A DNA stretch of 62,126 nucleotides, the filler included, from Platydemus manokwari (Eukaryota): NCBI GenBank assembly GCA_037951405.1. It is 5 parts of 5 records of this genome, joined end to end, with 100 filler letters (N's around TTAATTAATTAA, not from the genome) between each part and the next. Parts side by side here need not be neighbours in the genome. Positions count along the whole stretch, not along the records: positions 1 to 9,488 come from JBBMOY011241874.1; positions 9,589 to 21,714 come from JBBMOY010295558.1; positions 21,815 to 30,719 come from JBBMOY011332094.1; positions 30,820 to 48,593 come from JBBMOY010811091.1; positions 48,694 to 62,126 come from JBBMOY011729175.1. One strand, 5' to 3'. The notes beneath the pieces are model-generated. The model was given only the letters and a program-made list of their open reading frames with translations, made no database searches and was not told where the DNA came from. Positions 4,361 through 61,825 of the stretch are shown here, one piece after another. Position 1 is the first letter of the stretch; each line of letters opens with the position of its first letter. A program made the translations under genes and the position numbers.

Positions 4361-5377
4361 TCATAAAGTTGTCAATGTGTATGACCTATTATTATTATTA
4401 TCAAAATAGGTCCTATTGTTCACACGTTCCTTCTTCTCTTTCCATTTGCCGATAATCATTACCATAAATGGTGTGGTTATAACTAGTAGTATCATTGAGG
4501 CGGCTATTAGCGTAATCATTACTTCCACTCTATTTATCATTTCTAATTTTTCTATTGATAGCATAGAACTTAATAGTTTTTGCTTGAATGGTATTATTTC
4601 ATTATTTTCTTCGTTTTGGATATTTTGGTTATCCTGTGGTAGTATTTGGCTTTGGTCTATGTCATTCTTGTTAGCTTGCTTAGTGTGTGACCATAATTGT
4701 GGTGATATAGTTCCCATTATTAGTTTTACCTTTTTAGTTATTGTTGCTTCAGCAGCTGATGTATTTCTTCTTGTTGTTATTCTTTTTTGTGTAGTTATTC
4801 GCCAATCACAATTTATTGCAGGTTTTATATCGTGTCTCGTTTATTTGTGTATTACGTGTGGTGTATCTCGCATGGCATGTGTTATAATTATTATATATTT
4901 TTCACATGGATCTCGGAGTAGATTCATTATCTTAGGTTTATGTTCTAATATCGTTTAATGTTTGGCTTCCTTTTTATTTTCTATTACCGTGGGTCTTATT
5001 ATATTATAGCTACTTTCAGCTTTTATAATTGAGACGTATCGTCTGTCGGATTCTATTGTTATTCTTGTAAAATGTGGCATTAATTGAATTTCAACTATAT
5101 CTCTGTCTATTAATGTGTGATTATTTTTAACATAACACTATAGTTCCATTTTTTTGGTTGCAATTTTTTGAATACATGCTCTTAAGTTACTATTGCTGAA
5201 TCAATAAGTTTACTTTTGTAAGTATATCATTTTATTTTGTTATAAAAAGGTATCGGGTACGTGTATTGCTATCTAGAATTCTGCCTAATTTAAACTCCAG
5301 TTATGTCTAATGAGAGGTGGTTTAGTGTAAATGTGACAATTAGCTATTGTTAACATAATTAGTAAAGTGATCATCAT
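4361..5377 (-). pseudogene. Env-position type I membrane protein (signal peptide, ectodomain, TM, basic tail), disrupted
   Basis: N-terminal MMITLLIMLTIANC; C-terminal VMITLIAASMILLVITTPFMVMIIGKWKEKK; several stops and frameshifts in between. Confidence 0.6.
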
Positions 5378-6236
5378 TCAGGTATGTGATCTGAGTGGAT
5401 ATCTATGGCTGGTTGATATTTGCTTGCTTGTTGTTGGTCTGATTTCATTTTCTTCTGCTCTTATCGTTCTTGTCTGTGTTGGTGTATTTATCGTTTCATT
5501 TTCGTATTCATCGTATTTTTTACATCGCTCTGCGTAAGCCATTTTGGATCAGCTTTATTTTTTCTTCGTGGTCTTACTACTAAGTTAGTATCCGTCACTT
5601 TTCTACTATATATGGTCCCTTATATGGTCGTATTAATTTTTTTGATATCCCCTTTTTGCACGTTCGATTTTCTATCATAATTTTGTTTCCTACTCGAATT
5701 AGATGATTTTTCCGGTTTCTGTCATAGTAGTTTTTCATTTGTTCTTGTCTATATTTAATATTAAGATTCGCTCTTTGCTAAGCTTCCGCGAGTCTTTCAT
5801 TCATTAATACCGCATAATCTTCAACATCCATGTATTGGGATATTTTTGGTTCTATTACTATATCGACTGGCATATTCTGAAAAACTCCGTTCCCCGATCG
5901 GTTAGGAGGCATTTAAGTGCACCATACCTATATACGATTTCCTCTACGAATATTTTAGCCACTGTGCTTGCCTTCTTGTCTGGTATCACGTAGGCTTCGG
6001 GCCATCTAGTCATATGATCAATGAAGACTAAAATGTATTTGTCCCCGTTCTTGCTCATTGGGAGAGGCACGACTATATCCATGGCGACTCTTTCCATTGG
6101 TGCGCCTGGAATACGTAACGGTTTTAATGTATTTAGTTCCTGTATTGCGTCTGGTCTCACAGATTTTTCAAGTCTGACACCATTGTTTGACATCGATTTG
6201 CATTGTGAGCCAGAAGTATTTTTGTTTAATTCTTGA
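5378..6236 (-). pseudogene. Gypsy integrase (partial zinc-binding region, DDE core, GPY/F remnant, YPLR tail)
   Basis: KQKYFWLTMQIDVKQWCQT*KIC; PMERVAMDIVVPLPMSKNGDKYILVFIDHMTRWPEAY..LLTDRGTEF; tail ERCKKY..HRYPLRS. Confidence 0.92.
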
Positions 6237-6663
6237 CTATGATTATTATGATTATTATGATCACTATTATTTAACCGTACGGTTTCGTTACTCGTATTAG
6301 TATTTTCACTTTATGATTTTCCGTATCAATAAACCTAGCTACTGATTCACTTTTATCCTCGAAATCTATGATCAATGATTGACTTTTCGACTGACACCTT
6401 GTTATTCTTCTAGTACCGTGTGCTTTATTCAATATGTCCACTGTATTTCATATAAATGGCTTCTTCCCCGAGAGTTTGACTGAAAGTGTATTATACTTTT
6501 ATCAAAAATACGAAATATCATTTATGATTACGTAATCAATTAATATCAAAATACAAATATAACGTTTTGAAATACAAATATTATTATGACATATAAGTTT
6601 TTAATGAACAATTAATTTAATTAGTAAACATTTTTTTGCTGCATCTTCTCCTTTAAGAAAAAT

Positions 6664-6676
6664 GTTCGCGGCACCA
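6664..6676 (-). promoter_or_regulatory. tRNA primer-binding-site-like sequence (tRNA-His-like)
   Basis: Minus strand reads ...TTTAACA AAAAG TGGTGCCGCGAAC, resembling the TGGTGCCGTGAC complement of the tRNA-His 3' end, just after a CA LTR end. Confidence 0.55.
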
Positions 6677-6681
6677 CTTTT

Positions 6682-6850
6682 TGTTAAATAAACTTTTGGT
6701 TTTTTATTTTAACTGGCTCTTAAGGGGCTTCAATAACGGTTATGAAGACCTAGCTATTGGTAAATTAAAGGTTAGTATTATCTAAAGGTTTAAATCAGTT
6801 GATGATTTAGTCCTTTTTGATCATACCCAATACTGATCTCGAACGCTATA
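6682..6850 (-). repeat. LTR fragment sharing a ~70-nt core with 59440-59507
   Basis: Ends ..TTTAACA before the PBS; the homologous block at 59.4 kb lies a similar distance from its own ..ACA end. Confidence 0.5.
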
Positions 6851-7244
6851 ATATTAAATTGGTCAATCAATCAATCAATTTATGGGCTTAATTACTATTG
6901 CCATGCCCAATTTCTCAATTATTGGTGTACCGGTTCTTTCGGGTTTCTGTCTGGAGGGTGTTTTTGGTTTCTTGAACACGGGGTGTTTACTCGGTGATGG
7001 TTGTAGCAGTGTGTCCGGCTCTGATTTCAGCTTGGTATTTATACCGTGCTGTGCCGTCCTGCGCGATACTATTTTTAGTAGTCCGTTCGGCCTTTGTTAA
7101 CGTTTTGCATTTGCATATTCGTGTCTTATCTTGTTATTGTTTTTTGATATGATTTATATTATTATATTTTTTTCTTATTTGATTTCATTCTATTATAATT
7201 TTTTTTCTTTTATTTTATAATATTTTATTATACTTCTGACATAA

Positions 7245-9488: not shown

Positions 9489-9588
9489 NNNNNNNNNNNN
9501 NNNNNNNNNNNNNNNNNNNNNNNNNNNNNNNNTTAATTAATTAANNNNNNNNNNNNNNNNNNNNNNNNNNNNNNNNNNNNNNNNNNNN
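9489..9588. other. Assembly gap spacer (N..TTAATTAATTAA..N, 100 nt)
   Basis: Artificial six-frame-stop linker inside Ns; the same spacer occurs at 21715-21814, 30720-30819 and 48594-48693. Confidence 0.97.
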
Positions 9589-20871: not shown

Positions 20872-21814
20872 TAAAAAATATGTAATATAAAAGGTGGGTA
20901 TTTTATATTTTGATAAAAATGAAGACAAATCTGATGAAAAATTTTATTTTTGCAATTTTAAAACTGGGTTTTAGAATTCAAAAGTTGTTTGGAAATTGAT
21001 GTGATAAAATAATATATTATTATTCTTTGAAAAAATGACTTCTAATTTAAATCTCGAAGATGTAGAAATTTTGGATATTAACAACCATGATCATATTATA
21101 ATTAAAGATAGCTTAAGTTAAGAAAATGGTTCTTTGACCCAATTTTAAAGTAATGACTTCGTGAGCTATTTGATAATAAAATTTATTTGTAATAATATTT
21201 TATTGAAATTTTTCCGTAAAATTCAATTTTAGATTTAAAACCAAAAATCAACTGTAAGAATCAAAAACAATGTATTCGATGCCCGCTACTGAATTTGGCA
21301 CTTTAAACACATTTCTCGGCAATTTCTACGATTACATTTAGATCTTCAATGATATTTCTACGCCGAAATATTTCTTCATTGGTGAGAAATCTATAAATTT
21401 CGTTGTATCTCAATAAATAATTTTTAATTGATGGTTTTATTTTAATAAAAATTGTCAATATTTGTTGATGGTTAGTTTACTAATGGATTTGTAAATATAA
21501 TCTATTTTTAAATATAATTTTTTTGTGTGAGCCCCGTTCACCAAAAATACTTTATTCAGAATGTCAAAAAAGGACAAGCCTGAATTGTTGAACCAAGTTC
21601 CTATTTGAATTTCGAAACTTATATATTTGTGGCATCGTCACCTGTACGATTTATTTGATTTGGATCAAATCTTCATTTCATTACAACATCGACAGGTTTC
21701 GGATCTATGTATCCNNNNNNNNNNNNNNNNNNNNNNNNNNNNNNNNNNNNNNNNNNNNTTAATTAATTAANNNNNNNNNNNNNNNNNNNNNNNNNNNNNN
21801 NNNNNNNNNNNNNN

Positions 21815-37980: not shown

Positions 37981-38031
37981 CTGTAAATCAAAACAGCTCT
38001 TTAAAATCATCACAATACATTTTGCTCAAAC

Positions 38032-38223
38032 CTCAAACATTTGTCGCATCAATGGAATAGTACTTGTTTCAAGAAGAGTTTTAAGAGAATCATGAAGTGC
38101 ATCATTGTTTTTCTCAATAAAACCTTCAGTGTGATAGCAAACAGCTCCGGCAAAATGGCGGATTAAAAAACCCTCGTTGTCTCTTAACTCTCGATGGGAT
38201 TTCAGTTTCGATTTTCGAGGTAA
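38032..38223 (-). CDS. Myo6: Myosin VI exon, motor domain
   Basis: [44 protein letters not shown] (not in the ORF track). Confidence 0.95.
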
Positions 38224-40652: not shown

Positions 40653-40780
40653 CTGAAGTCGAAAATGATTAGGATTCACTGAAAATATGGAAGTTGTGAA
40701 ATGATCGGCACTGGGTTTTGGCAGTTTGCTCTCTTCGTCTAGAATATCTATAATTCCTGAAGATTTCTTTTCGATAAGAT
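40653..40780 (-). CDS. Myo6: Myosin VI exon, motor domain
   Basis: DLIEKKSSGIIDILDEESKLPKPSADHFT. Confidence 0.93.
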
Positions 40781-41568
40781 CTGAAATAGTAATAATTGTT
40801 ATTAAAATAATGTGTCATTAGTATAATAATAATTGTTATTATTAAAATATTATTAATAATACTATGATGATATCTGTTGGTTGGTATTGCTCATTTCTTT
40901 AATTGATGTAAGTTTATAAAATTAAATATATATAAAGTGACGTTAATGAAACATTCTTACCATGGTTTTACAGAACATTTTCAATCTATACAACTATATA
41001 AGTCAATGATAAATTTATGTCTAACACAATTGGTTTGGAAACATTTATCTACAATATTTTGGTATAAACATGTAAAATAAAATCACTAATTTATTATTTT
41101 AATTTAGGTAATGGACTAATGTTATAAAATATTTGAGCTCAATAACATAACAGTATAAAAAACTCTTAATTTTTACCCTAAAATTTAAAACAGGGAATTA
41201 TGAATTGACCTTTGATAAGATTGAAAGTCCAAGACAACCTTAAAGATAATAATAGAATTTTACAATAAAAATATATAAAATTTTGATCACATCGGTTATA
41301 TTTCTTAAAAATAGTATGTTTTAAAATATTATTGATGTACAAAGCAGAAACTGATTATTTTTCTATTAAAACTGATTGGCCAACAAAGAATCTTTTTAAT
41401 AGAAATTTTAAGTTGAAAAATAAAAATCCATGAAATGGTATTTATGAGATGCATTTCAGTTATAGATTTAGAATTTGTTAACGTAAAAAAAGAAATGCAT
41501 GGCTATGACCAATTAATACTCTTACGATTTTTTAGAGAAGCATATATGTGTTATATGTGAGATATCTA

Positions 41569-42883
41569 TTGGGTTGGTGCAAAAATTCGTGTGGTTTCAT
41601 TTGTTGCAAAGAAAACACCATTTTAATTGATTTGAATTATATTCTTTCAACTGAATTATCTATTTTATCTATTATTATCATTTTAGACTAACTTTCAATT
41701 TCATTACCTTCATTAAAATGGTATGTCAGGTAGATAAAAATGAACATTTCTGGTATCCTCTCCTTTTCTATTTTAATCAACATTTAAATGCTGCAGAAGC
41801 CACCAGAATGATTTATTGTATTTATGGAGAAAAGGCAGTCAGTGAAGGAACAGCACAAAAGTGGTTTTCGAAATCTAGCAGTTGAAATTTTGATTTAAGC
41901 GATACAACTCGGTCAGGCCGACCTAGTGACTTTGATGAAGATTGTTTGACCCAATTGATTCATGATGATCCGAGTCAATCGACACGAGCGCTTAGACAAA
42001 CCATAGATTGTGATCGCATCACTAATTCTCGATATCTCCAAAAAATGGGAAAAGTTCAAAAGCTTGGATCCTGGGTACCTCACCTTCTCAAAAAAAGTCA
42101 CAAAAATCAACGTGTTACGTATTCTACATCTTACTCGTTTGGTATCAATCTGCTGTGCAGCAACACTAATCTTTCCTTTCCAGAATCATCACAGGTGATG
42201 AAAAACAGTGCTTGTATGTAAATTTTAAACACAAAACAACTTGTGTAAGTCCTCAAAAGCAACCAAAATCACATGCAAAATCCGAAGTTCACCAACGCAA
42301 ATTCTCGTTGTGCATTTGGTGAAACCAAGCTGGTGTTATTCATTGTGAAATCTTGCCAGGAAACCAAACAATCAATTTCGAACTTCATTGTGGACAACTC
42401 AAGCGATTAAAGCGAAGAGGACCAATAAGAATCAGATAATTTTACAGCATAGCAATGCTCGGCCTCATGTCATCACAATGACAAAGTTGGCTATTAAAAA
42501 GTTTGGCTGGGAAGTACTTCCACATCCTCCATATTCGCCCGACTTAAGTCCAACAGATTTTCATTTTTTCCGCTCCATGTTGAACCATCTTTCTGGTCTC
42601 ACATTTAAAAACGAAGAAGCAATAACATCGTGGATTGAACTATGTTTGGACCACAAATCACCAAGCTTCTTCAAACGTGGGATTGACAAACTGCCACAAC
42701 GGTGAAAGGAAGTGATCGATTGTTGCGGAGAATATCTCACCGATTAAGACTGAGATATTTGTTTTTTCTAATGATTTCATAAATTCATTTTGTTATCTGG
42801 AATTTTTTACATGGTTTTTATTGTTGATCAGTATGCATTTTTCATAATTTTATAAAATCGCATGAACTTATACACCAACCTAA
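41569..42883 (+). mobile_element. Full-length but inactivated mariner transposon in a Myo6 intron
   Basis: TA-flanked TIRs TT(G/A)GGTTGGTG(C/T)A..; transposase at about 41718-42747 with WVPHLL and HPPYSPDLSPTDFHFF motifs, frameshifted. Confidence 0.95.
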
Positions 42884-43019
42884 TATTTATGCTAAATATT
42901 CAAAGTTATAATTATGAATCACAATTGTACAAAAATTGTTTAAGTAATATGTTTTACGAATATAATTTATGAAGTCTGCAATTGATATGCTTCTAATTCT
43001 GACAACCAAGAAATTAACA

Positions 43020-43430
43020 CTACTAACATGGCGACACGCACTTGGAATCGATTCTAAGTCGACGAGTACCGGACAAAATCAGAAATAAAGATAAAAATGA
43101 GAGACACTGAAGACGTGTCGAAGAAGAAGATGGTTGTAAAAATACAGGATACAATCAGAGAAAAGGAGAAAGAAGTGAACACAGTAGAATCAGATGGGTG
43201 GATATCAAAAAAGGAACAAATCAACGAGTAAGGAAATTGGGATTAAGACCAGAGATTAGGGTATGTTACAACTGCCAAAAGCCAGGTCACATATCAAGGA
43301 AGTATGAGACGAAGAAAATTATTATATACTATGCACTCAACAAAAGAGGACATACAGCCAGAGATTTTGCAAATTCGAAAAAGTGTAATAGATTTCAATA
43401 CAGAAAATAACACGAATTCGGACAGAAAAA
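43020..43430 (+). mobile_element. LTR-retrotransposon gag fragment (two decayed CCHC zinc knuckles)
   Basis: CYNCQKPGHISRK..KRGHTARD; upstream ..AACA TGGCGAC resembles an LTR-end/PBS junction. Confidence 0.65.
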
Positions 43431-44152
43431 GACAAATCGAAAATTTTACATAATTGTAATATTATATGATACAAACGAAATGTATTTGATTTGTTGGCTA
43501 AAGTTAAAAAACCGGTCCTAAAGTAAAATTTTAAATATGTTGAGTGTATTGGAAAAATTTATATAGTTTATTTAATTATATTATTTAAAACACTTTGAAT
43601 TTTTTATTTAAGTACTTAAGAAGAATTTTAGTTGTTTGAAATAGAATATTTAATACACTGGAGTTTAAAAATCTCCTAAAATTTGATTATTTGATAAACT
43701 CATCAAAGTAGGTCAAATTGGAATTTATTGAAAATTAGCGTGGGTCCCTTTTTTAACATTAAAAGCAAATTGAGATATATTCTCAATTTTTACAATAATT
43801 TTATAAAAATAAGCAATGATATTATTAAACATATCTGTAATTAACTAACTCGATTTATAATTATAAAAATTAAAATTTAAAAACTAAAACAATCACATAG
43901 ACACGTTGTGATTAGAATAGGAACTTGGTTTTAAAACTATTGTCACTCTTAAACATCCGAAAGAGTGAGATATTAACTGAATTATACAAATAAATCAAAC
44001 ATCGCAATTATATATAAAATTAAGTTACAAAATGCATTATTACAAAAGTAGGTCAAAGGACCCCGTCTCTTAACCTAAGCCGATTTATTTATTAAAGTTT
44101 TTAAATTTTCAAAATGCTCTCTTATTAATTCCAACATGAAAACAATAATTAC

Positions 44153-44317
44153 CAATGCAATCAGAATTGTCAACGAATTTGATTTTGGAAAGTCCAAGAC
44201 CTTCTTTTTCGTAAAGAATTTGTTCTTCAACAAGAACATGTTCATTGAAAAATTGTTGCAGTTTTTCGTTGCAATAATTGATACAAAATTGTTCAAAACT
44301 GTTCTTTTCGAAATACT
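44153..44317 (-). CDS. Myo6: Myosin VI exon, relay helix
   Basis: [41 protein letters not shown]. Confidence 0.95.
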
Positions 44318-45519
44318 CTGTAATTAAATGTTTTTAGATTAAAGTATTAATAGAATAGTGTGATTTAATCAATCTTTTAATGAAGTTTCATGATCTTAAC
44401 CTATTATATGAAAATAATCTAAACTAAATATTATCAGTGGGTATTGACATAATTTTGAGTATTATGATTTATAAGACTGTCGAACTCGATTAATATTGCT
44501 GCACATGTCACTGGGAAAATAGTAATATCAACAGAATTTAAGAAAAAACCTGACAAAAATTAATTCAAATTTAAAAATTAGTTAGGAATTTAAAAGAATA
44601 ATTCTTATATTATACTTCTGCAAGATTAACATTATAATCTTAACACAAAACTTAAGATTAAGAGGTGATAAATCTTAGATTTACATACGAATTTTTTGTC
44701 ATCACTGGCCGTTGATCTATCTTTGGTTTTATTTTTGTAAATTGTGAAGTTTTAAAAATTAAAAGTTTTTTAAAAGTTTTTAAAATTAACAACAAAATTA
44801 ACAACATCTTTGTACCGTCAATGCAGCCAATCAAATTTAACCACTTTTGTTATGTTTAAAGACTAAATTTTAAAATAATTTAGTGATATTAAAATTATTA
44901 CTAACATACTGTAAATGATGAAGGGATTTTAGATCAAGAAAGCTAAAAAATAAATCATCAGATTTTAATTTCTTTAATTAAAATTTAAAATTTTCATTTG
45001 AAATAATTTAAAATAAATAATGCGTTTTAACAAGTATAATTAAAAATTATTTAGTTGATAAACATTTTTCAAATATTTTTTAAACTTAATCATAAAAACA
45101 TTATATTTAAATTAAAAACAAATAATAATTAATTCAACTCATTATAATGAATAACTAACCCGAATTTATGAGTCATAAATCTATGTAAAATTTGTACCAT
45201 TGTTTACATCAAATTATATATTTTTTCAAATTAGTTTCAAACATTTTCTATAAACGGTAAAGGCTTAACTTATTTCATGTATTACTTAAAATTATTGTTT
45301 CCAATTTATTTACAATGTTTACTTAACTATGAACAGAACAGAAAACTTAAACCTTAATTAAGAAAAATTCCCAAATAGAGTTCCTATCGATAGTGTGACA
45401 AAGATAAATTTAAATTTGAAAATAGAGTCAAAGTAATAATAAATTATTAAAGTAAAACGTTTTCATATTTATACTGATTTCATTTTCCATATAAAGAATT
45501 TCTTTAGATGAATACCTAC

Positions 45520-45822
45520 CGAATCCAGCGATATCTAGAATGCCAACATAGTTAACAGAATCCTTAAACGGCAAGGCTCGATTTACAAAAGCTACAATCT
45601 CATCGAACAGACGCACGTATATTGCTTTGCTCAACGCATCTCTTGCACTCTGAGCGTCTTCTGGTTTCAAAGCAATTCTAAGAGCTGTATTTTGTGCTCC
45701 CCGACCAGCAGCACTAGTAAATCTATTACATAACGATTCTGCCAACGACTTAGATTCAAAACCCAATAATCGACAGGTGGATTGAAGAGCTGATTGGCTA
45801 CCAGCAGATATTTGACATCCAC
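45520..45822 (-). CDS. Myo6: Myosin VI exon, switch II
   Basis: ARDALSKAIYVRLFD..YVGILDIAGF. Confidence 0.95.
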
Positions 45823-46967
45823 CTCAATTAAATTTGGATTTTTATTAAAATGAAATACAGATAAATAACAATGTTCAATAAATTTGTTAATATTTCATTC
45901 ATACCTTATAATTTTTTAAATAGATAAAGAAATACCGAACGAAATAAATCAAAATTTATTTCAGATTCATGTTAGCCTAAAATGTTAAATCGAGATAAGT
46001 TTACAAGACAAATACATTTGGAAGATCCGCATATTGGTAAAAAGCAACGTTTTGTTGAAAAATGGTTAAAAATACCCCAAATGATGAGCACGATAAATTG
46101 ATAATAAATACAATTAAATAAATATTAAACTATTTCCATCTATTAAACACTAAGCCAATCCTCATAAACATTGCAATTTTTATTAAATCTCGAAATACAA
46201 CCATGATAACACAAAATAATATTTTGATGAGCTTCTTCATGGGGATTCTAAGCTATCTTTTGTTTTCTTTTACTATCTATTACATGTGATAGATTTAGAC
46301 AAAACCAGATTTCGGAAATAGATCTAACATTTTGTAAAATTAAAATTGAATATAAATAGTAAAGGAAATTCCTTCTTCGCTCACTAAACATGAAATTCTT
46401 TCAATATTATTAATCGTAACAAATATATAAAGACAAATTTCTGATAAGAATCTGATCGATAATGTTTTAAAATATAATATTGTGAAACACCATGTGTTCA
46501 TATAGCATTATTATCTTTCTAATAATGATATTAATGATGTTGAAATCAATTTTCTGGAAATTTTATATATTGAGTTTTAGATTCAATAAGTTTTTATTCG
46601 AGAACAGTTCCTAATTTTCATGCTCTTGTTGCTTGAATAATAAATGGTATGGAAACAAGTATTATGTCATTACTAATATTTTCATTAAATTTTGAAAATT
46701 TTTCGTTAATTGAATAATTTTCTTGATCTATAAAAACCAATCCCAGTTATCTTTAATTTCTAAACAAAGCAAATCATTTTTTATAATTTTATTTTTTAAT
46801 TTAATTCAATTTTTAATATTTTATTAACATAATCGACAAACGAAGTTCTATAATGCTTATTTTCTATAAAGACAAACCACCAAATGATCGCTCATGGCCA
46901 TCTCACCCCAAAACAAATTTGAAGCACATACATGATAACTATAAAAGGAAAGCAGGATCTTACAAAC

Positions 46968-47964: not shown

Positions 47965-49456
47965 CTTAATAGAAATTCTGATTATAATTTTGTGATAATT
48001 ATTTATAAATTATTTGCAATTTTATGTGAATAATTGATATCACGCACACAACATCTGCACAGAATGAATCACCAATTATGGACGCTATCATTTTTAGACC
48101 AAATCAAGATTTGATGATATTTTTCTGTAATTCAATAAAGAAATAAAGTTATCTTCTAATTTGAAAGAACTGCAAAAATATTAAACAAATTAAAAATAAA
48201 AATAAAAAAGAAGATAGATGAAGAAAAAACGGATCAAGTTTTGATAACTCAATTTTTATTATGAAAGAATTCTGATTACAACAATTATTATATATCATAG
48301 AACAAGTTTAGAATCAGATTTTTAGCTGAACTGTACTGATGAAAACTGTTTTGATTTGCTATAGAAATCCAGGAAATATTCAATGGTTAATAATAATAAT
48401 AATAATTATTATTATCATAATAATTTATATAATTTATTGCAGCAGAGATTGGTCATATATATAAATGTCTGCTTTTGAATTCAATTAAACAGATTAGTAA
48501 AGATTTGCAATGTTATTTGGTTCCAGATATATTTGCCATACTTCCAAAAATAATGTTAATGATATTATGAAGATTTTTAATAATCTCGTTCTTNNNNNNN
48601 NNNNNNNNNNNNNNNNNNNNNNNNNNNNNNNNNNNNNTTAATTAATTAANNNNNNNNNNNNNNNNNNNNNNNNNNNNNNNNNNNNNNNNNNNNTATTATA
48701 TTATATTATATATAATTATATATTACTAAATAATATTCCCGTCAACTACAAAATTCCCCTGAATTTTCATTAAAATGTTTTTCATGCAAAAATAAAAATT
48801 GTTCATGCAATTAATGTTAAAATTGTCATAGGCTTCAAAACCCAACACAAATATCAAATATCTTCAAATGTTCGTGTTTAAATAAACAACTATGAAATTA
48901 TTATTCTCTCTACTTTGATTCACTTGTCTGCAATGGAAATCGTCGTATTTAGATTTTTAAGAGTGAATTGTGATGGAAATACATCAGCTTATATAGATGC
49001 TGAGATTCGGTATTTTGTACCTAGGAATTTCTATCACTATCATAAATTTTAAGTCATATTTTGATCTTGGACCCTTAAAGTTTATGATTTTAAAAGTCCT
49101 AAAAACCTTAATAATTCTTAATAATTTATCTAACCTCAGAAATTTTATTGCTAAATTATTGACATTACTAATTAAATATTATTGAATTTCTGACATTAAA
49201 AATTAAATATTTTTGTTTCTTTTTCCACTCTTTGATTTATAAATAATAATATATACCAATTTTTATTTCCCATATTTTCTACATTACGTATTGACGATTA
49301 TTACAAAAGATAAATCATATAATTACAAAAATTCGAAATATCACTATCAAGATTAAAATATCAAGTCAACATTAGGATATCAATAAGTCATTATTGGATT
49401 GATTACTAGAGGGTCTTGTTTCGAATTCGCAGTTTTCTGCTGAATCCTTGCAGACA

Positions 49457-51289
49457 TCAAGTGTCTAAACCCACTCTCCAGCTTTTTGTGGCCCACGTTT
49501 CCCATTTTGGGTTTGGTTTGATGGTCTTAATTATTATTTCCGTGCCTGATCTCTCTATTATTGGTGTACCGGGTCTTTCGGGTTTCTGTCTGGAGGGTGT
49601 TTTTAGTTTCTTAAACATCGTGTGGTTACTTGGTGGTAGTTGTGGTTTCTGGGGTAGCAGCTTTCTTCATTCATTGTATGATTTGATAGAGTATGGGGTC
49701 TTTTCGCTTTCGTCTTTGCTCTCCTCACTGTCTAAGTAGAGCACCAGACGTCCCATATGGTCTTCCCAACCATTTGAAATGGACTCTTTGAAACTGCTGA
49801 AATCTTGTCACAGCTGTTTGGCGTCATCTCACAAAAGCATATCAAATGCAAATGATAGCTCCATTTGATTAAAGGTTGCAAAATCTTTGGTTGTTTGGAA
49901 CCATTTCTCAGCGTCTTGGATTGATGTATCGAAGAATGATGGTTTCGGAATGGTTTCCGAGGTCAATTCATATTCACTACATTCCATATCTTCCTGCTCA
50001 TCTTTTCCCATTATCATTGATATTTATTTCCTCTTGTGATTCTTCATCATCATAATGGATTATTACCTGAATCCTTTCTCCCCTCTCATTGTCTTTTAGC
50101 TTCTTGAATTCTGTAAAATTGTTCCTCCAGAATTTAGATCTCTTCTTTTCATGATATTGCTCTACTGCTGATTATAAATTCCATAGTTTATCCTTGGTTC
50201 TAATCACCGACCTTTCTGTTAGCATTTCTTTGTCTGCCCACTCAAAAATATTTGTTGCTCTGGCACCCTTTCAATTTCTTGCTCCTGCTATTTTTTCTAA
50301 GAAAATGGATAGAGCTTTAAACTTCTTTTTCAAGTCAAAGCCAATCAAAATTTTTCCATTGGGAAATTCTATCACTTCTCTACTTGCTTCCTCCGCATCT
50401 ATTACTTCTCCTAATCCTGCTTCTCCTAGCTTATTTTTGTTTTCTTAGTAGTGTTTTACTTCACTTCAAGGATAGCACGATTTCTCCCAGAATATTTTCC
50501 TTTTATAATCTCTCAAGAATATCCATACATGATACTCCTTATTATTGAAGTCTATGACATATTTGACATAAAAAATCTGATTTTCTTTATCGATATTGGT
50601 TCGTGTGTACGACATCTTATTCTTCGCCTCTATGAATGGAATAGACTTGAGATGATTGCCAATAAGCGGTTTTGGCTTTCCGAATTCCACTGGCTCTTCA
50701 CATTCTGGTTTAATAAATTCGATCATAATCGTAAAGGGTATTCTTTTTGCCCTTATGCGGATTTGAGTGAAGTCTTGTAAGGCATTAATTTTCTTTGCCG
50801 AGTGGGATAAATTTATAATGAGGTGAATGCCTCTAGGTTTATATCATCATTTGGGTATGTGACTGTAATATCCACTTGAGTGTTGTGAATATTTATCATT
50901 GTTGGAGAAAAGTCTAATTGTGGTAATACATCTTCGATTTTAAAGCTTTCTTGCTCTTGGGAAAAGAGAATAATTACGACTCTTTTCTTTTGAGAGGATA
51001 CTTTTAAGTTGTTGGGTAGGTCTGAAATATTATTGAATTTTCTTATCCCCATCCAAAGGGATGCTTTCTTAACAGTCGAATTTATTGCTAAATAGAACCT
51101 TCGTGGGTAAAACTGTATTAAGGATGTAGTTGGCTTCATAGCTAAATCATGAAAGATGAATTCTGAATAAATGAAGGGGTGCCTTACTCTTTTACGTAGT
51201 GATTGTGGAATTTCTGCTTTTAAATTATGGTTTTTAGGGGTTCTATAAGCGCTTTTATAGTTCTTAGTCGCTTGATAGTGATTGGTCAT
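49457..51289 (-). pseudogene. Accessory ORF-C: N-domain, degenerate DEDDh fold, capsid-NTD-like fragment, basic Pro-rich tail
   Basis: Track ORFs 50813-51289, 50466-50726 and 49829-50017 plus untracked reading: VWIFLRDYKRKIFWEKSCYP*SEVKHY*ENKNKLGEAGLGEVIDAEEASREVIEFPNGKILIGFDLKKKFKALSIFLEKIAGARN aligns with ORF-A and ORF-B. Confidence 0.65.
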
Positions 51290-51619
51290 TAATTAGGGGT
51301 ATTATTTCTATTGGATAATTGATTTTTCTCCATTATTTTATTCATTGGGGATTTTTCAGAGAATTTATTTACATTATTAATTATTCTACATCACATTTTA
51401 TATTTACAAGAATTGATCCTATTAAATATAATTTTATACACCGAATTTTGATATTTACATAAATTTATTTCTCCTAATTTCCTTAAATAATTATAACAAC
51501 TTTTTATATACAAATTGATTTCATATTGCCATTGGTATTTACAGAATTTTTTTAAAATTGAATAATTAAAAATTTTACAACAAATATTTTCTATGTACAA
51601 ATTGTTTTCATCCTGTAAT

Positions 51620-53645
51620 TGCTATAAGCTGACTTCCCATACACGAGGGTTGTCCTTACAATATTTTCTATACCGTTTATAACTTATGTACATCCCAATT
51701 ATGGTGGTCAAACTGGAAACTACAGCTCCTATTATCATTATGTTAAGGATGATTTCATTTTGAAGCTGTTTACTGCTTAAAAGTGTCATTTTCTTATAGC
51801 TTTTGTTGTTGTTTTAATGATGGGTTTTATTGTTTCCTTTATAAAAGATGGTTCTAACGTTATTTGTTCTCGATGAATTATGAACTTAGGGTTACTTTTT
51901 TTTAATACAGTATATGTTTATGGCATTCTTGATGTTAACATTCTGGGTGATGATTCCTTCATTCGAATTTATCTTAAATTGATGTTCGTTTAAATGTACT
52001 CTAACTTCAAAACATTTCAGGTCTTCCCAGATGATTTTTATTTGATCTAACAACCTTTCGATAAATATTTTACAGGGTAATTCAGGGGTTTGAGAAATCA
52101 TTGTTGTGATAACATTTCCTTTTCTTATTTCTATTTGATAAATAATTCCGCTATTTAAATTGTACATATTTATTGCTCCATTATAACTTTCACGAACTTT
52201 ATCATCTAATATTTGGCATTTTTTATTGCCTTTGACTTTTAATTCTTTCTTAAATTGTGCTGTAAATGATTTTATCTTCCTATCCTTATACTAGTTTTTT
52301 TTATTATCATTATTCGTACGTTTTTACTATAAATTTTAAATTCTTCTTTTCCTATGTTGTTAAAGGTAAACATCATCATTGGACTGTCACATGTTTGAAC
52401 ACAAGGGAAAACTATCATTGCTGTAACTAGAGTTGCCATTCTAGGAATTTTCTTCCTATATATTATTGGTGTTGCAGTGTCATTATTCCTCCTTTTTCTG
52501 GCATACATTATTATTAATGCTATTGTTATAGCTATAAATGTTATGGCTAAACTTGCTATTAATGCTGATTTTAGGTTCTTAATGTGTTGTTCGCAGTCTG
52601 GTAATTTTCATCATTTTGATTCTATCTTTTTCATTTTATCTCTCTCTATTCTTATAAATTCTAAATGCTTTTTTCCTTCATCATTTACTTTTCATTCCAC
52701 TACTTTCTGCCAATAGTTTATTATCTCTATCCAATTTCTATTTCCTATTTCACTTTCGTCATTTATCGTTTTTGTTAATTTCCATTCTGTTATATTGATT
52801 ACCAGTTTATCCTTATTGGTTGTACAGGATTTAAAACTTTTTTCACAATTGCATTTGATGTGTACGTGTCGGCGTAACACTATGTGAATGTCATATTATG
52901 AATTCCTAATTCCGGTAATATGATTGTCTTAGATGGTATGGTGTTATTTAATTTAATTTCCTTTTCTCCATTTATTCCAATTTTTGCTACTGTTCCCATT
53001 AATGCTATTAAATGGTATGTTAACATATTAGTATATGGCTTCCATGATATTCGTATTATTTCCTTTTTGCTTTTGGTGTCTTAAATTTCCATTCATTTCT
53101 GTCTAGTTTTGAATTTTTTATAATTGCTCTTAAATATCCTATAACTTCAATTGCCTTTTGTTTACTGCTTGTTAACTGTATCATTATCAAGAAATTGACT
53201 CTCCATTCTTGATTTATTAATTCTTCCCATTTCCTCTACTTCCCAATTTCTCTACTTTACATTTTTCACCATGTCCTCGATTACACTTAACTACAAATTC
53301 TATTTTATTTATTTCATTCTTAACCTGTATTTGACTTAAGTCTCTTAATTTTCTACAATTACATTGTTGTTGACAGCTTATTAAAGCTCTGTTATTTTCT
53401 ATTGTTATGAAATATGGTAGAATGAATTTCTTTATTAATTCACGTGTGGGTTCTGGAGCTTTTTTCACTATTATCGATGATGTTTTCTCAATATCTTTTA
53501 ATGTTATTATATTTTTCACTATAACTGATGTTGTAGTACTAAAGGTTTCTAATGTTACGGGCTTATTGATCAACATTCTATCAGATTCATTAAAATATTT
53601 GACTGGTCTTATCATCAAACTAATTATTATAGAGACTATTATCAT
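51620..53645 (-). pseudogene. Env-position membrane polyprotein with two tandem signal-ectodomain-TM modules
   Basis: MIIVSIIISLMI (signal), then SALIASLAITFIAITIALIIMYARKRR (TM1), in-frame MATLVTAMIVFPCVQT (second signal), and IILNIMIIGAVVSSLTTIIGMYISYKRYRK (TM2). Confidence 0.65.
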
Positions 53646-53796
53646 CTTTCCTATTCTCCTAATTGACTTTATTTTTCTTTCCTGTTTTATTTCACTTGTT
53701 TTTATAGTGTTAATATTTGGAACATATTTCCGAGTTTGAGTAGATTGCTTTCTTAATGTTTCCTTTCTAGCTATTGGCTGTACTTCTTCAGCTTTT

Positions 53797-54800
53797 TTAT
53801 GGTCTATTTACATGTACCACTGAAGGATCTTCATTCTTTTTCTTTCTTATAAACAGATTTGTATCTGTAACTTTTACCACCTCATAGGGTCCTTTATACG
53901 GTCTTTGCAATTTTGGCGATATTCTTTTTTTAACTTCAAGTGCATAAATCCTAACCTTATCTCCTATCTTAAATCCATGATTATATGCTTTCTTATCATG
54001 ATAATCCTTGTATTGTTCTTGCTTAAACTTTAAATCTAATGGCGCATGTTGATAAGTTTCTCCTAATCTTTCTGTCGTTGTCGTTACATATTCTTTCTCA
54101 TCCATTAACTGTGATGTTTGTGGCAAGAATTCTAAGTCTATAGGCAAACATGCATCTCTCATATACATTAGATAAAACGGTCAATATCCCGTTGCTTCAT
54201 TTATTGTGGTATTATATGCATAAGTACATGGTTTAATATATTCATCCCAATAAGTTTGTTTTTTATTAACAAAATTTGATAATATATTTCGGAATGTCTG
54301 GTTATATCGCTCTACTAATTCGTTTGTTTTGGTCTATATGGAGATGTATTGATTTTCTTGATTTTAAACAACTCAGTAGCTTCTCTTATTACATTGCTTA
54401 AAAAGTCATTCCTCTATCAGTTAGTGGTTTACTAGGTGCACCGTATTGAAATATTATTTTTTCTACTAATAACTTGGCTTTTGTTTCACTCTTATAATTT
54501 TTAGTCGGAAACACTAATGACATTCGGGTAAAGTAATCGCAAAATACTATTATGTATTTATTGACTTTTTCTGTTACTGGTAATGGTCCCATTACGTCTA
54601 TTGCACACATTTCCACCAGTCTTCTTACTGGTGGTAATGGCTTTAAAGGTACTTTCCTTACTTTCCCTGTATTTTTCCTTGTTGCACATAATGAACACTG
54701 CTTAAACCACTTATCTACATCGTTTTTCATATTACTCCAATAATATTTGCCTTTTAGTTTACTATATGTCTTTCTTTTGGACAAATGACCTCCTAATGCT
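53797..54800 (-). pseudogene. Gypsy integrase with GPY/F module
   Basis: GH..YYWSNMKNDV..CSLC; AIDVMGPLP..YIIVFCDYFTR..LTDRG; PKLQRPYKGPYEV..VHVNR. Confidence 0.95.
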
Positions 54801-54803
54801 TCA

Positions 54804-56500
54804 TCATGATATGAGATTTTTGGGTACTACTATTAAATTCTCTTCGCCATAAGTCAAGACATTTTTGTTATTTAACTTATATCCCTTTACTCTTTCACTA
54901 TCTTTGTCTCTTTCTATTAACCATTTTACATTTCTTATTTCACTGTACTCCTTTTGTTCTCTTTCTATTTCTCGTATGTCTGTTTTAACGTTAATTGTTC
55001 TTACAAATGTATTTATGGCATTGATCTCTAATAATCTCCCTTCGGATTTTTCAGGTATTCTCGACATTGTATCTGCGTTAGCATTAGATTTTCCAGTTCT
55101 ATATATTATTTTGATATTATGGTCTTGTAATTTTAATGCCCTTTTAATTAATCTACTGCTGGTATCTCGGTGTTTCATTAGACTCTCTAACGGCTTATAA
55201 TCTGTTTTAAGTATGATCTCAGTACCGTAAGTATATTGTCGCAATTTTTTCAATGCAAATATTATGGCTAAACATTCTTTTTTCTATAGTGGAGTAATTT
55301 TTCTCTGCTCCTTTTAATGATCTACTAGCGTATGCAATTACATGATCGGATTGTTTTTCTTTTTGCTGTCCTAAAACTGCTACTAATGCCTCATTGCTTG
55401 CATCCGTCATTACTATAAATAGTTTAGACATGTCAGGATATTTTAATATTGGCGCATGTATTAAATTATAATTTAATTTCTCGAATGCTTTTTGTTGTTT
55501 CTCTCCCAATTCTAACTTCATATTACTTTCTCCTTTACTTATTTTTCCTCTACTGGGTGTTTTATCTAACTTATCTTGCTGTCCGTATTTTTTCTTATAC
55601 TCAGCTGCTGCTTTTTTTGTAGCACTATATATGGGGATCGCAATTTGTGCATATTTTTCTTGAAATCTCCTATAATAGCCTGCCATTCCTAAGAATGTTT
55701 CAGCTTCATTTATTGTTGTCATTGCTGGAAAATTTTCAACTTTCTCTATTTTAGCTGGGTCAGGTGATATTCCTTTTGCTGATATTATATGACCTAAAAA
55801 TGGTACTTCGGGTCTAGTCCATTCACATTTAGTGGGTTTAATTTTAAATCCTGCTTTCTTTAATCGAAAAAACACTCTTCCTATGTCTATTAAATATTCT
55901 TCGAATGTTGGTGAGTACACTAATATGTCGTCTATGTATACCATTGCATTTGGTAAATCTGTTAACACTGTATTCACTAATCATTGAAATGTTACTGGAG
56001 CTCCGATTAAGCCAAAAGACATTTTTACAAACTCATACAATAATTCTCAAAGACAAAATGCTGTTTTTTCTATGTCATCTTCTTTCATCTTAACCTGATT
56101 AAATCCCTTATTCAAATCTAATTTGGTGTAATATTTTGCTCCATTTAATTTATCAACAATTTCTCTTATGTTTGGTTATGGGAAAACGTACTGTTTGGTA
56201 TTCTTATTTAATTCCCTATACTCTACATAGAGTCTTATTTCTCCTTCTTTCTTTTTAACTGGAACCATATATGTCTTAAATGGTGATCTCCTTTCCCTAA
56301 CTAGTCCAAACTCTTCTATGTCTTTTATTTGACTTTCCGCTTCTTCTAATAATTTATACGGCATTCTTCTAAATGGTAATTTAATTGGAGTGTTATCCGT
56401 CATTATTATTTCATGTTCTATTACTGCTGTTGATCCTACATCATATTCGTGTTTTGCCATTAAATCATTATATCTATCTATTATTTGTTGTAGCTTTTCA
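54804..56500 (-). pseudogene. Reverse transcriptase and RNase H
   Basis: PVKKKEGEIRLYVEYRELN, KLDLNKGFNQV, VYIDDILVYS, FLGHII, TDASNEALVAVLGQ, YASRSLKGAEKNYSTIEK, TDYKPL. Confidence 0.97.
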
Positions 56501-57039
56501 TTTTGTTCTGATGTTAAGTTTTCTTTATGTATCTTGACTTCTCATATTTCTTAATTCTCTCAGATATACTTAAGTCTACAGCCGCTATGATTTTAGCTTT
56601 AACTAATTTTCCTATTGTTTCTCCTTGATACAATATTTTATCCTCGGTATCATAATTTATTATATACACTGGAAAACATCCATCTTTTATCTGCACTATG
56701 ATGTTAATCGTTTTTATGTTCTCGTTTATTATTTTATGTTCTAGCATAAATGATTCATTTTCCTGGTTCTTTTCGACAGCTAAATAATATATTCTGCTAC
56801 TCCATTTCGGGATTACTTTATTTTCACTTGATTTTAACACTTTGGGTTGATTCATTTTATTATTTTGGTCTTTAATACTTTCAGTTTGAAAATCCTTTAA
56901 TTCCCCAGTTAGATAAAAAATGAGATTTGTTTAAATATTAGAAAAAACAAACAGTGTAATTTTGAAATATAATAAAATTTTATGGAAACGAGTTGTCTTT
57001 TTACTTCCCCTAATTCATCTCTTGATTTTATTCGTTAGT

Positions 57040-57358
57040 GTACGCAAGTCCAAATACCATCCTTTAAGCCTTCCTAACAAATATATTCCTATTAATACTG
57101 CAAATGATGCTTTTTCCATTGCTTTAAACATGTCATCTATTCTTATATTTCCGATTGTCAGATTTAACACTAACTTGTTGCTCCTGTTGCTCCTATGTCG
57201 GTGTCTACATGTATACTTTCTATTTCTTCTGTTTCTAATATTTTTGTGCTTATCATGGATGCATCTGCCCCGGTGTCAATTAATCCCTTACCATATCTAC
57301 CATTTATTTGTACTACTATAATTGGTCTTGTCCCCTTTTCAGGTGTAATTTGAACCAT
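57040..57358 (-). pseudogene. Retropepsin aspartic protease
   Basis: GLIDTGADASMIS; after a frameshift, FAVLIGIYLLGRL. Confidence 0.9.
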
Positions 57359-58125
57359 TTATACTCGATATAACTGTGTTCGTATGTCTGGGTATTATAT
57401 TAATTGCGCTCCCTCATCTTTATCAATTATTTGATTATCTATTAAATTTATCGTTGTTTGCAATGTTGTTATCATCTTTCCAGATGTTTTCTCTTTGTTC
57501 ATGGTATTTATAACTTCCTTTGTTGTTTCCTTGTCTGATATTTTATTGCTTATTCGATTTATCTCATTCTTATATTTACTCGCTCAATGTTCTAATGCCT
57601 TTATATGCAATTTCTCCTTTTTATCTAAAGCGCTGGCTTCACCAGTAAGTGCTTGTAAATAGTATTTAATTTTTTTCTTGACTTTCCCTTTCTGATTAAA
57701 CTCTTTTATTGCTTTTGCATGTATCTCATTTTTATCTAATGCGCGGATTTTGTCACCAAGTACTTGTGTTTTATATTTGATTCCCCATATAATTTTTTCT
57801 TCCATGTCGTTTTCGTTAAAGTTTGTGGGATCATCGTTATTTGTAATTTTAATTATGATTTTATTCTTAACTCCTGGTGGCCTTCATCTAGTTTTTCTTA
57901 TTGTTGCTTCTTGGTCTCTCATCTCCTTATTATCATTCATTTCTTCCTCTGTTTCAGTTCCTTTTTTTTATCTTATGTTCTTCTTCTCTTTTCCTAACTC
58001 ATTTTCTTCATTTCCTTTTCCTAACATATCTTCTTCTATTTTCTTTCCTTGAACTTCTTGTTCTATTATTTCTCCACTATCATCATAATTATATGTGATT
58101 AATTGATTTATTGGTTCGTTTATAG

Positions 58126-58913
58126 TGTTGGGATCCCCACTCATCATAAATTATAATTAACCCACTCGTCACGAATTATAATTAATTCACCCTTTACATA
58201 GCATACACACCCAATAGGAAACCCATTACGTAACGCATGTACATAACAAATAAGCCTTTAGCTATGGAAGCAGACATCCCAAAGCTGACCTATCATTTAT
58301 CCCAATCCAAAGTCAATTCAAATTCAAACTCAAAATGTCAACAACATGTTATCCCAATATTCACTTATCACATCGACTTATTATTGTTTGATATGACAAT
58401 CTATGACTGTTTATCCAATTTTATTATTGTTTGCTATAACAATTTATTATGTCCAATTCTATTATTGTTTGTTATGATAATTTATTATATCTTTGTAATG
58501 TATTATTTATCATTGTGAGGATTATGTATGAATAAAGGAATGCAGGGAGAATGCGGGTGATGGGGGATAACGACAATGAGTATAAAATAAAATGATAAAG
58601 GAAAATAATAATCTATAAGACAATGACAATAAATATGAAATGAATAATAAAGGAAAATAATAACTTATAATAAAACAAGAATAAAAATGACAAATAGAAC
58701 AATTATATAATAATATAATGTACAAATTAATAATTAATATGAAAAAATTACAATTGGAAAAAATCTTAAAATGTAGACAGTATGCAAATTACTGCCGGTG
58801 ACAAAAATGTGTTACCAAAAATAGTAAGTATCGTCTGGCTCAGCAAATATAAATACTGAGCCCAGTACAAGACAACACACAAGTTCACAAGTTCATAATT
58901 TCACAATCTCACA
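58126..58913. repeat. Cluster of LTR-like sequences interrupting the gag region of element 2
   Basis: TGTTGGGAT at 58126 with ATCCCAATA at about 58351-58359 (same terminal 9-mer as the element 1 LTR); TGTGAGGAT at 58514 with ATCTCACA at about 58913; no TSDs found. Confidence 0.35.
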
Positions 58914-58930
58914 ACGACAACTTTTAACGG

Positions 58931-59009
58931 ACGAAGATTTTCTGATTTGCACCAGATCCAGGATTTACTGGAGACATTCATATTGCGAGCACGAAGATTT
59001 TCTGATTTG
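58931..59009. repeat. Perfect 19-bp direct repeat, 60-nt period
   Basis: ACGAAGATTTTCTGATTTG at 58931 and 58991. Confidence 0.85.
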
Positions 59010-59544
59010 TCAAGAGTAAAAAATTTTTAGTTTGTTGTAGCATTTTTCATTTTTCATTTAACTTAATTAACAATTTTGCGATTAAATTTTTATAAAACAA
59101 TTTAATAGTATATGTCATTGTCGGGTTCTCTCCATCGCAGCGCGCATCTTTTCTTCGTCCGATTTCGAATTTATGCTTGCTACTTGCTGAGGCTAAATTT
59201 TTGTTGTTTGAAATTTCAAACGTTACTGTTCCTTTTTGTTTCACTTAATAAATCTTATTAAAACCGTTATTACTTTTTAATCATTAATAGCATTTTCAAC
59301 ACCGCAGGGGTTAACGTAAAGCTAATAGAAATTTTATTGATAATAATTTATTTATAATTACTCAACGTCGGGAGAATAATCAATCAACTTTTACAGGCCC
59401 ACAACGGTGTCATCGTCAAGGGATTCAGTCAATGTCTGACCTTTAGATAGCACTAACATTAACTTTTCCAATAGCGTGGTCATCATACACGTTATTGAAG
59501 CCCCTTAGGACCAGAGATAAAATCAAATCCCGCAACCGACACAT

Positions 59545-61825
59545 TAATTTAATAATAGCTTGAAACATTCTTGATGTTGATGGCATACATTCCTCTCTTA
59601 TCATGTTTCTATAATTATCATTTGGGACTTGTGGTATATAACTATAATTATTTTGTGGTTGATATTCAAGTGGAAATATTGGTTGTTGTTGTTTATGTTC
59701 CTCATCATAAATTATTTCTTCTTCTAATTTATCTTCTTCCTCATTATTCATTTCCGGTGTCGTTAAATTTATTTCTTCTCGGTATGGATAAATTATTTTC
59801 TTGATTTCAAAGCTATTTCGTTCACTTTTATTGTGACTTTGATTTCCAAAACATGGATCATGAAATTGTCCTTGTAAACATCCTATACAATTTCTTAACC
59901 CACCTTGTTGTTTTCTTATCAGCTTATTTACCTTATATGTTTCTGGTGATTCTATCAACTTCATGAAGTCTTTTCCCGATAATTCTGTATCTTCTGTATT
60001 CTTAACTTCTTTCTTCTTATTTTTTGATGTTTCTCTCTTTTCATCAATGATTTTATCATATCCACTTGCTACCTCATCTATTATTTCATCCAAGTCTACT
60101 GATCATTGCCTTTTAATTTTTCTTTCTACATTTTGCCATTTCTATTTATTTTCCTTTATTGTTGATTTTGTCGCTTCCTATTTCTTTTTCCTTATTATCC
60201 TCACACCTTATCATGTTTATGTTATTATATCCCCAAAATACGTCAAAATACCCCAAGGCATAGTTTTAGGCATATTTGGTATTGGTGTTATTATGTTATG
60301 TAACTGTCACTATATTTATTTCATCCTCTAAGAGTACATTTTTTAGTTCTTCCTCTATTAAGGTTCGTTGTTTATACTTCATGATTATTTTTTTTATTCC
60401 CCATTCTCTTCTATTTATATATTGTTCTTCTATCTTTCTTTTCAAATGTTTTACTCCCTTCTTTTTTTTAATTAACTTATAATCCCCTAAGTCTTCCTGG
60501 TAACTATTCAACACTTCTATTTTTACAATGTATTTATCTTCTTCATTTATTAAACTTATTTCTATACTGTTCCATCCTGTTGGGTCTAAACTATGATGCC
60601 AGAATTGATAATCATCATCTAATATTTTCCAAATTTTTCTTTCTTCCCCTTATGCTTATATTTTAATTCCATTCTTCTTAGTATACTTTTCCATCTTACT
60701 ATATATTTTTCTTGTAGTATTCCTGTTTATTTAGATGTCCAATTTTTAAACCACTTAATTTATGCAAGTCCGCTTATTCTAAATTCTTCAATTGTTTTCT
60801 TTCCCCTTATGTTCACTTTAAATTGATATACAGGTGCAGACAATAACCATATTGGTAATTTAATGTTACCCTTATTGCTAGTAATTCTTTCATCCCAAGT
60901 TCTCATGACTGCTATTATCCTATTTATCTTATTTGCACTTATTTTGTAATATCCTATTTATTGTTCATTATTTATGAATATTACTTTTGTTTTTAATTCC
61001 AATGTTATCCCTAATATAGGTTCATTTTCTCTAGTTAACTTTCCTACATCCACCTTATATGACATTTTCTAATTCCTTCTCTTTCTATCGTTGCTGTATA
61101 TTTTACTCTTATGATCTTTATTATTTAATTGCCTGTATTGTCTATCGTTTTAACTTCAATCTCTATTTTATTCTCCTGTTTAATTTCTTCTTCACAAGTT
61201 ATCATATTTATTTCATACTGACCCCAGGGAATCAATTTCGTTGTGTAATTATGTTTTTCCGTCTTGAATTTAACTTCTAATACGTTTATTTTGTCTACCT
61301 TGCACATGCCTTTTAATTTAACCTTATCCCCTATTTGTTCTTGATTATGGTATATGTTTATTTTTACATTCTCCAACTCTGTTTGGTCAATATACAGTTC
61401 CCTTATTGTTTTTAGCACTTCCTTTATTGTTCGATGTTTAATATTGACTCATATTTCTTAATTTTATCGATGTAATAATTAGGTTCTATTTTCATTTTAA
61501 CTATATAATGTGCCCATTCTTCTTTTATTAATCTGATCACTACCTCATTCTTATAATATTCGGTTAGTGGATGATACCATAATTGGAGTTCTTCATCTAA
61601 AATTTCCTATTTTCCTAACTCTATTTCTCTTTAGAGTGTACATCACCTTTCTTTCTTGCTACTATTTTCCGATTCACTATCACTGCTATAATTTTCAATT
61701 TCACTATTAATTCTTCTTTTTCCTAACTGCCTGTTCACTATATCAGAATTTTCTATTAAATTGCTTTTGCTTGCACTGCGTAATTGTCTATCAGATTTAT
61801 TCAATATCGAGTTTCTTTTATTCAA
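59545..61825 (-). pseudogene. Third decayed accessory or membrane-protein region ('element 3' remnant)
   Basis: Chain of minus-strand ORFs with the same A-rich bias as elements 1 and 2; FN3-like TKLIPWGQYEINM; decayed TM near 60200-60260; CxxC-x4-H-x2-C cluster. No pol motifs within the window. Confidence 0.5.

Follow-up and report, generated by a model that had tools for sequence, protein, structure and literature searches.

Two decayed Ty3/gypsy elements of a gB-type errantivirus clade in Platydemus manokwari and their putative FN3-type membrane proteins encoded after the integrase

Results

Gene content of the two elements

We analyzed a 62,126-nucleotide stretch of Platydemus manokwari DNA (the window, filler included; assembly GCA_037951405.1), both ends of which carry decayed retroelement genes on the minus strand, as seen by translation. 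An earlier note on this DNA had described three elements with fibronectin type III (FN3)-like ectodomains and proposed, from short motifs, that the gene in the env position looked like a captured FN3 protein rather than a viral fusogen. Our analysis leads us to lean toward a different account, in which the two decayed Ty3/gypsy elements in the window belong to a clade with a gB-type env upstream of pol, and the proteins encoded after the integrase are likely FN3-built attachment helpers and not fusogen replacements.

The broken pol of element 2 (53800..57358, minus) was delimited by Pfam (RVP, RVT_1, RT_RNaseH, Integrase_H2C2, and rve) and by its relatives, and its Pfam domains follow the Ty3/gypsy order of protease, reverse transcriptase (RT), RNase H, and integrase. 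Two genes for membrane proteins, both with frame breaks, follow the integrase and were delineated by translation, motifs, and hydropathy. Protein A (52506..53648, minus; several frame breaks) consists of a signal (53610-53648), an ectodomain of ca. 349 codons containing IRISWKP and ITGI, and a membrane segment (52506-52562). Protein B (51625..52439, minus) begins with a second signal-like segment from 52439, recognized by eye, and continues with an ectodomain of ca. 213 codons containing YNLNSGIIYQIEIR and IKIIWED, a membrane segment (51697-51753), and a short tail. Beyond them lies a broken accessory gene (50061..51292, minus; upstream limit set from open frames) whose C-terminal part looks like an exonuclease; the gene resembles gene A of element 1 (E 3.5e-4) and weakly matches locus L002, an intact relative (E 0.046).

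In element 1, the integrase (core and C-terminal part, broken; 5598..6310, minus; Pfam rve, E 6e-10) is the sole pol domain left according to Pfam. It is followed by a gene for a type I membrane protein with stops and frame breaks (4364..5377, minus; translation and hydropathy), which has a signal-like start (by eye), an ectodomain of ca. 276 codons with a T/Q/N-rich stalk end, a membrane segment at 4451-4507 (hydropathy), and a short tail. No relative of this protein was found among 1.84 billion representative proteins; a phmmer search of the element 1 frame against them gave 52 matches, all of whose best stretches ran from residue 398 on. A long direct repeat pair bounding element 1 or 2 was not found in the long terminal repeat (LTR) test, and both copies are truncated. 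Many diverged copies of both element families were present in the one sequencing run containing window DNA, the single such run among those searched; no RNA run was listed as containing it.

The third element of the earlier note is the pre-protease part of element 2 (59555..61852, minus; contig joints and loose ends, twin pieces, and hydropathy), because contigs of run X1 skip 1,433 CTAT-flanked bases. In these contigs 59555 is joined to 58121, with two more joints at almost identical places, and the CTAT on both sides of the skipped bases represents a 4-base target duplication. The 1,433-base insert (58122..59554, including one CTAT copy) ends in CAACA on the minus strand, shows an 81% inverted match to 6702-6789, and is likely a solo LTR from another family. 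The element 2 copy appears to terminate near 61824-61852, and other copies in the run X1 contigs extend further.

Hydropathy revealed no signal or membrane segment in 59555-61830, although decay could mask one. Neither the separate element nor the ectodomain claimed for this region is thus supported; an ectodomain here would carry the downstream enzymes to the wrong face of the membrane. The region is likely cytoplasmic cargo of the element 2 polyprotein. It contains an internal duplication ca. 330 codons apart (41% identity over 46 residues), and the twin of its quoted motif TKLIPWGQYEINM retains WG and INMI.CE and is without the L.P and Tyr that an FN3 reading requires. A profile of the ubiquitin-like domains found in the relatives gave no support for regarding this repeat as ubiquitin-like. 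At 60814-60846 there is a further FN3-like pattern, LLSAPVYQFKV. FN3 in this region is unlikely, and we keep the estimate above zero because of this second pattern.

Clade of the elements and position of its env

A search for long polyproteins with the RT-RNase H region of element 2 gave a group of relatives with 41-47% identity. Additionally, the 14 best blastp matches of each of four integrase pieces from elements 1 and 2 were all members of the clade bearing gB and FN3. In a FastTree phylogeny built from 46 of the 120 rows, selected as long alignments with ≥35% identity or for carrying gB or the repeats, the element 2 RT grouped with gB-bearing relatives at an open fork with a support of 87. 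The viral fusion glycoprotein family PF24664 matched 14 of 15 long relatives, always upstream of RT, and 12 matches exceeded the curated cut-off; these 15 had been chosen out of the 120 partly for their PF24664 annotation. The env of this clade thus lies upstream of pol, not after the integrase as the earlier note had assumed. On sequence grounds, we assign elements 1 and 2 to the gB-type GAG-ENV-POL errantivirus clade.

At least seven relatives carry gB and FN3-type repeats in one chain (six of the repeat-bearing subclade, and P0191 of the P0008 cluster). The remaining records of the repeat-bearing subclade start downstream of the expected gB position. Other cargo seen in the clade includes an immunoglobulin (Ig) domain after the integrase (P0023, 2481-2554), a PHAX RNA-binding domain (P0025, 3328-3405), and, by Pfam, ankyrin repeats and extra aspartic proteases in P0012 and P0016.

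FN3-type membrane protein of intact relatives

Repeats of the type C..L.P.T.Y.V.I were found after the integrase in 11 of the 14 rows of one subclade. Past the integrase these relatives show a signal-like segment, one to three repeats of ca. 100 residues, a Ser/Thr stalk, an anchor, and a tail. The ectodomain of P0011, modeled from a six-row alignment (P0011 and five relatives), gave two beta domains with a predicted local distance difference test score (pLDDT) of 79.6. Foldseek matched this model to FN3 proteins in the PDB (best E 1.2e-7), and VIA matched it to the fn3 of collagen XX with a Z of 9.7 and a root-mean-square deviation of 3.5 over 94 residues. Its BFVD matches were FN3-type proteins from phages and giant viruses, and none of the 50 listed was a named fusogen. 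In the ESM Atlas, the ten best family matches of P0010 all belonged to fn3, at family or clan level (best score 0.90). The P0011 ectodomain is thus predicted to be a tandem FN3 fold; P0010 was assigned by its language-model neighbors, and the other relatives by alignment or motif alone. Pfam fn3 failed to detect the relatives' domains. No specific host FN3 donor could be named from Foldseek and VIA, because the matches of P0011 to FN3 cell-surface proteins were many, tied, and only 5-16% identical.

Locus L002 is intact and has pol, a membrane protein, and two exonuclease genes in the order of element 1; it was the only one of 81 scanned loci that matched the cargo genes, and the exonuclease alignments were too diverse for scanning. 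In element 1, accessory gene A (3125..4340, minus) was recognized from homologues, a profile, and an alignment as an N-terminal domain joined to an ISG20/REX4-like exonuclease, and has 52 relatives at E≤0.001 (P0122-P0173). Its first acidic motif is replaced in the alignment, and it is without the FxD[AC]EF kept by some family members. Accessory gene B (1147..2618, minus) is broken and related to gene A as a tandem paralogue; the two share 27% identity over 186 residues (E 6e-14), and the same tandem order occurs in L002. The profile of this exonuclease family matches ISG20L2 (E 7e-28).

Across the family (1147-4340, 50061-51292, and L002 7268-10374), an uncharacterised N-terminal domain precedes the ISG20L2-like exonuclease, with no Pfam match. 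One exonuclease gene of L002 has FxD[AC]EF and one does not. By eye, a further accessory frame of L002 (10906-11517) resembles a TFIIS N-terminal domain and a ubiquitin-like domain.

Motifs and fold of the window proteins

The motifs quoted in the earlier note were all present on the minus strand at the places given, except one. In element 2 these were YNLNSGIIYQIEIR (52123-52164), TPELP (52075-52089), and IKIIWED (52021-52041), together with IRISWKP (53036-53056) and YHL (53009-53017); in the pre-protease part, TKLIPWGQYEINM (61203-61241) and FRISGL (60766-60783); and in element 1, NLLRDPCEKYIIII (4883-4924). ITGL was not present; ITGI occurs instead (52908-52919), in a frame other than that of IRISWKP. 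The tyrosine-corner pattern L.P...Y.[IF].V, named in the earlier note as a mark of FN3 domains, occurred at no site across the six frames of the window. A relaxed pattern, picked after the motifs had been viewed, matched five sites in the window, including one in the element 2 ectodomains (shuffle P 0.014) and two in the pre-protease part (none of 1000 shuffles reached two). It matched none in element 1, whose motif fails even the relaxed spacing. By eye, Trp, Tyr, and the pattern L.[PS]...Y.I.I follow one another in element 2 as they do in FN3 domains.

Pfam found neither fn3 nor a fusogen in 38 window pieces (E≤1) and 16 more pieces. The HMMER check against PF00041 proposed in the earlier note thus returned no fn3 row from the 38 pieces, and this silence says little because Pfam fn3 also misses the relatives whose fold is supported. 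The proposed structure check covered 51895-52290, where a single-sequence model had a pLDDT of 45, gave no Foldseek match at E≤0.001, and reached a best Z of 4.7 in VIA, and was thus uninformative about the fold. Searches of the ESM Atlas with a window piece gave no usable match, and sequence searches of the PDB with window pieces and alignments A1 and A6 gave nothing relevant. Word-index homologue searches with an element 2 ectodomain piece and with A1 also found nothing; these blanks are weak, because the A1 search missed even P0008 and P0010, both inside the query. When the candidate repeats of the window were aligned with one another, the motifs did not line up, and this alignment was not used.

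Several results weigh against an FN3 fold in the window copies. The element 2 RT has a long branch in the tree and is not part of the subclade that bears FN3. The slot after the integrase is swappable, with an Ig domain in P0023, other tails in P0019, P0020, P0024, and P0025, and no repeats in P0009. In a motif matrix derived independently of the window from the repeats of intact relatives (18 repeats), the quoted motifs scored ca. 1 bit both in element 2 (rank 41 of 73,524 sites) and in the pre-protease part (rank 36), and left-out true members scored 12-27 bits. Most relatives also keep a cysteine ahead of L.P, which the window motifs do not share. A tblastn search with 120 relatives gave two chance-level rows outside pol and none in the ectodomains, and found no gB in the window. 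A hidden Markov model (HMM) of the relatives' repeats scored at most 3.2 bits on the window, within the range of shuffles, and hhalign of the window against these repeats gave probabilities below 1%. A bacterial FN3 HMM detected 8 of the 11 relatives (P≤0.04) but none of 12 window frames; P0011 was among the relatives that it missed. For the repeat HMM, a divergent true member, P0007, likewise scored low (3.7 bits) when left out. Because the window shows no gB, we infer this protein for the families of elements 1 and 2; its lack in the window says nothing on a loss by these families, because the copy seems to end near 61824-61852.

With matrix scores far under those of true members and no match to the strict pattern, the quoted motifs are real letters yet weak evidence for FN3. 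The ectodomains of the window (ca. 210-350 codons) match those of the relatives (ca. 220-390 residues) in size. Since the post-integrase proteins of element 2 agree with those of the relatives in clade, slot, layout, and size, are followed by exonuclease genes as in the relatives, and show the motif pattern, they probably have the FN3 fold. For the protein of element 1, where FN3 is suggested by slot and layout, the chances of such a fold appear evenly balanced. Profiles detected no known fusogen (F, gB, or class II) among the genes that follow the integrase in either element, and their ectodomains are small beside the 653 positions of the gB model. The earlier proposal of an FN3 protein rather than a fusogen is thus supported in that these genes are no recognizable fusogens and that intact relatives have an FN3-fold protein in the same slot, but not as to a replaced env, as gB lies upstream of pol in the clade and co-occurs with the FN3 protein.

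Other features of the window

The window DNA is AT-rich, and minus-strand exons of host myosin VI at 31076-45823 (Myosin_head, MYO6_lever, and Myosin-VI_CBD) indicate an animal host. A remnant of a Tc5/pogo-type transposase DNA-binding domain lies at 28890-29264 (plus). After element 2, another high-copy repeat is represented by a gag-like fragment (49450-50023, minus), and 126 bases of this fragment recur with 85% identity upstream of the element 1 integrase (6879-7065, minus). The N44-TTAATTAATTAA-N44 gaps at 9489-9588, 21715-21814, 30720-30819, and 48594-48693 are artefacts, and the pieces flanking them may not be truly adjacent.

Discussion

Three rivals to the account given above were weighed. 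The post-integrase proteins of the window might be other cargo in a swappable slot, with motifs that are chance look-alikes in A-rich sequence. We consider this rather unlikely but the strongest competitor, since all profile tests on the window were negative, the strict pattern had no matches, the element 1 motif fails the relaxed spacing, and the clade does contain non-FN3 tails. Against it, the FN3-bearing relatives agree with the window elements in slot, layout, and size and in the genes that follow, element 2 shows the FN3-ordered Trp, Tyr, and L.[PS]...Y.I.I seen by eye, and even the true member P0007 scored just 3.7 bits when left out. Quite improbable is the version of the earlier note, in which a captured FN3 protein replaced the fusogen as the sole surface protein. 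The ca. 1,020 codons visible upstream of the element 2 protease without gB would fit it; however, the copy seems to end near 61824-61852 while other copies continue, P0012 has ca. 570 residues of cargo between its gB match and the protease, and at least seven relatives carry both gB and FN3 repeats. To our knowledge, FN3 is not known as a fusogen.

The order of signal, anchor, signal, and anchor in element 2 resembles bunyavirus precursors, and it might be read as a Gn/Gc-like class II fusogen precursor whose FN3-like strands are domain III. The Gc domain III of Atlas virus has an FN3 topology in the available text of PMC9094657. On the other hand, the ectodomains of ca. 349 and 213 codons have few cysteines, Pfam gave no viral fusion family at E≤1, and the P0011 model matched FN3-type BFVD proteins, with no named fusogen among the 50 matches listed. 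Such a precursor is thus extremely improbable.

We therefore retain the account of two gB-clade elements with FN3-type attachment helpers. Two-component entry is known in herpes- and paramyxoviruses, and herpesvirus gB requires partner proteins for cell choice and triggering. By analogy, attachment in partnership with gB would be the favored job of the post-integrase protein, with service as a decoy or receptor blocker as the chief other possibility. An internal signal after the integrase would direct the ectodomain into the endoplasmic reticulum, where signal peptidase would separate the ectodomain protein from the integrase. The anchor would retain the protein in the cell or particle membrane, with the FN3 domains displayed on the Ser/Thr stalk; these domains might bind a host surface molecule while gB performs fusion. 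The second signal and anchor in element 2 would yield two such membrane proteins.

More broadly, we tentatively suggest, as a possibility somewhat short of an even chance, that a clade of invertebrate retrotransposons evolved two-protein entry, with a gB fusogen before pol and a swappable host-derived FN3/Ig receptor-binding membrane protein after the integrase, the two being released from a single giant polyprotein, and that element 2 has two such binders in tandem. The FN3 idea of the earlier note thus holds for the clade and is unproven for these copies, and its element count and env replacement were wrong. Transmission mechanisms are still elusive for most elements, according to the available text of PMC13524379. 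For the choice of target cells by gB-type errantiviruses, a conserved second surface protein is a concrete candidate part, or else a receptor decoy. A signal and anchor after the integrase do not mean env in this clade, which is a warning for annotation. The dead window copies contribute little alone; their value lies in the clade.

In the parts available of the cited papers, GAG-ENV-POL elements and cargo after pol are already known (PMC13524379, PMC6431247, and PMC5408684), and the new feature would be the post-integrase FN3 membrane protein; no description of one was found in the literature searched, a search that was not exhaustive. Chary and Hayashi (PMC13524379) describe GAG-ENV-POL errantiviruses of the HSV/gB type in Nematoda, Bryozoa, and Platyhelminthes. 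As far as that text is available, these resemble the window's relatives in that a gB-type env precedes a pol of the Ty3/gypsy kind, whereas the window copies are broken with no gB visible. Its available main text contains no instance of fibronectin, FN3, immunoglobulin, or exonuclease, and its available supplements none of fibronectin, FN3, or FNIII. The giant planarian retrotransposons Burro/GYPSM1 (available text of PMC6431247), compared by description only, have a very long polyprotein with an in-frame env between gag and protease, and ankyrin and ubiquitin-like cargo shared with the relative P0012; that text contains no "fibronectin" and mentions no post-integrase FN3 membrane protein. In the bdelloid rotifer elements Juno/Vesta, the open reading frame 3 (ORF3) products occupy a post-pol slot and are exonucleases or small membrane proteins once taken for env (available text of PMC5408684, in which "fibronectin" does not occur). 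Their exonucleases are RNase D-like DEDDy enzymes, in contrast to the ISG20/REX4-like ones found here. Like the FN3 surface proteins sDscam, LAR, Tie2, fibronectin, and collagen XX, P0011 is predicted to have tandem 7-stranded sandwiches, a stalk, and one anchor. Unlike those proteins, the relatives have a conserved cysteine pair, are mostly without the canonical B-strand Trp, and give no Pfam fn3 match.

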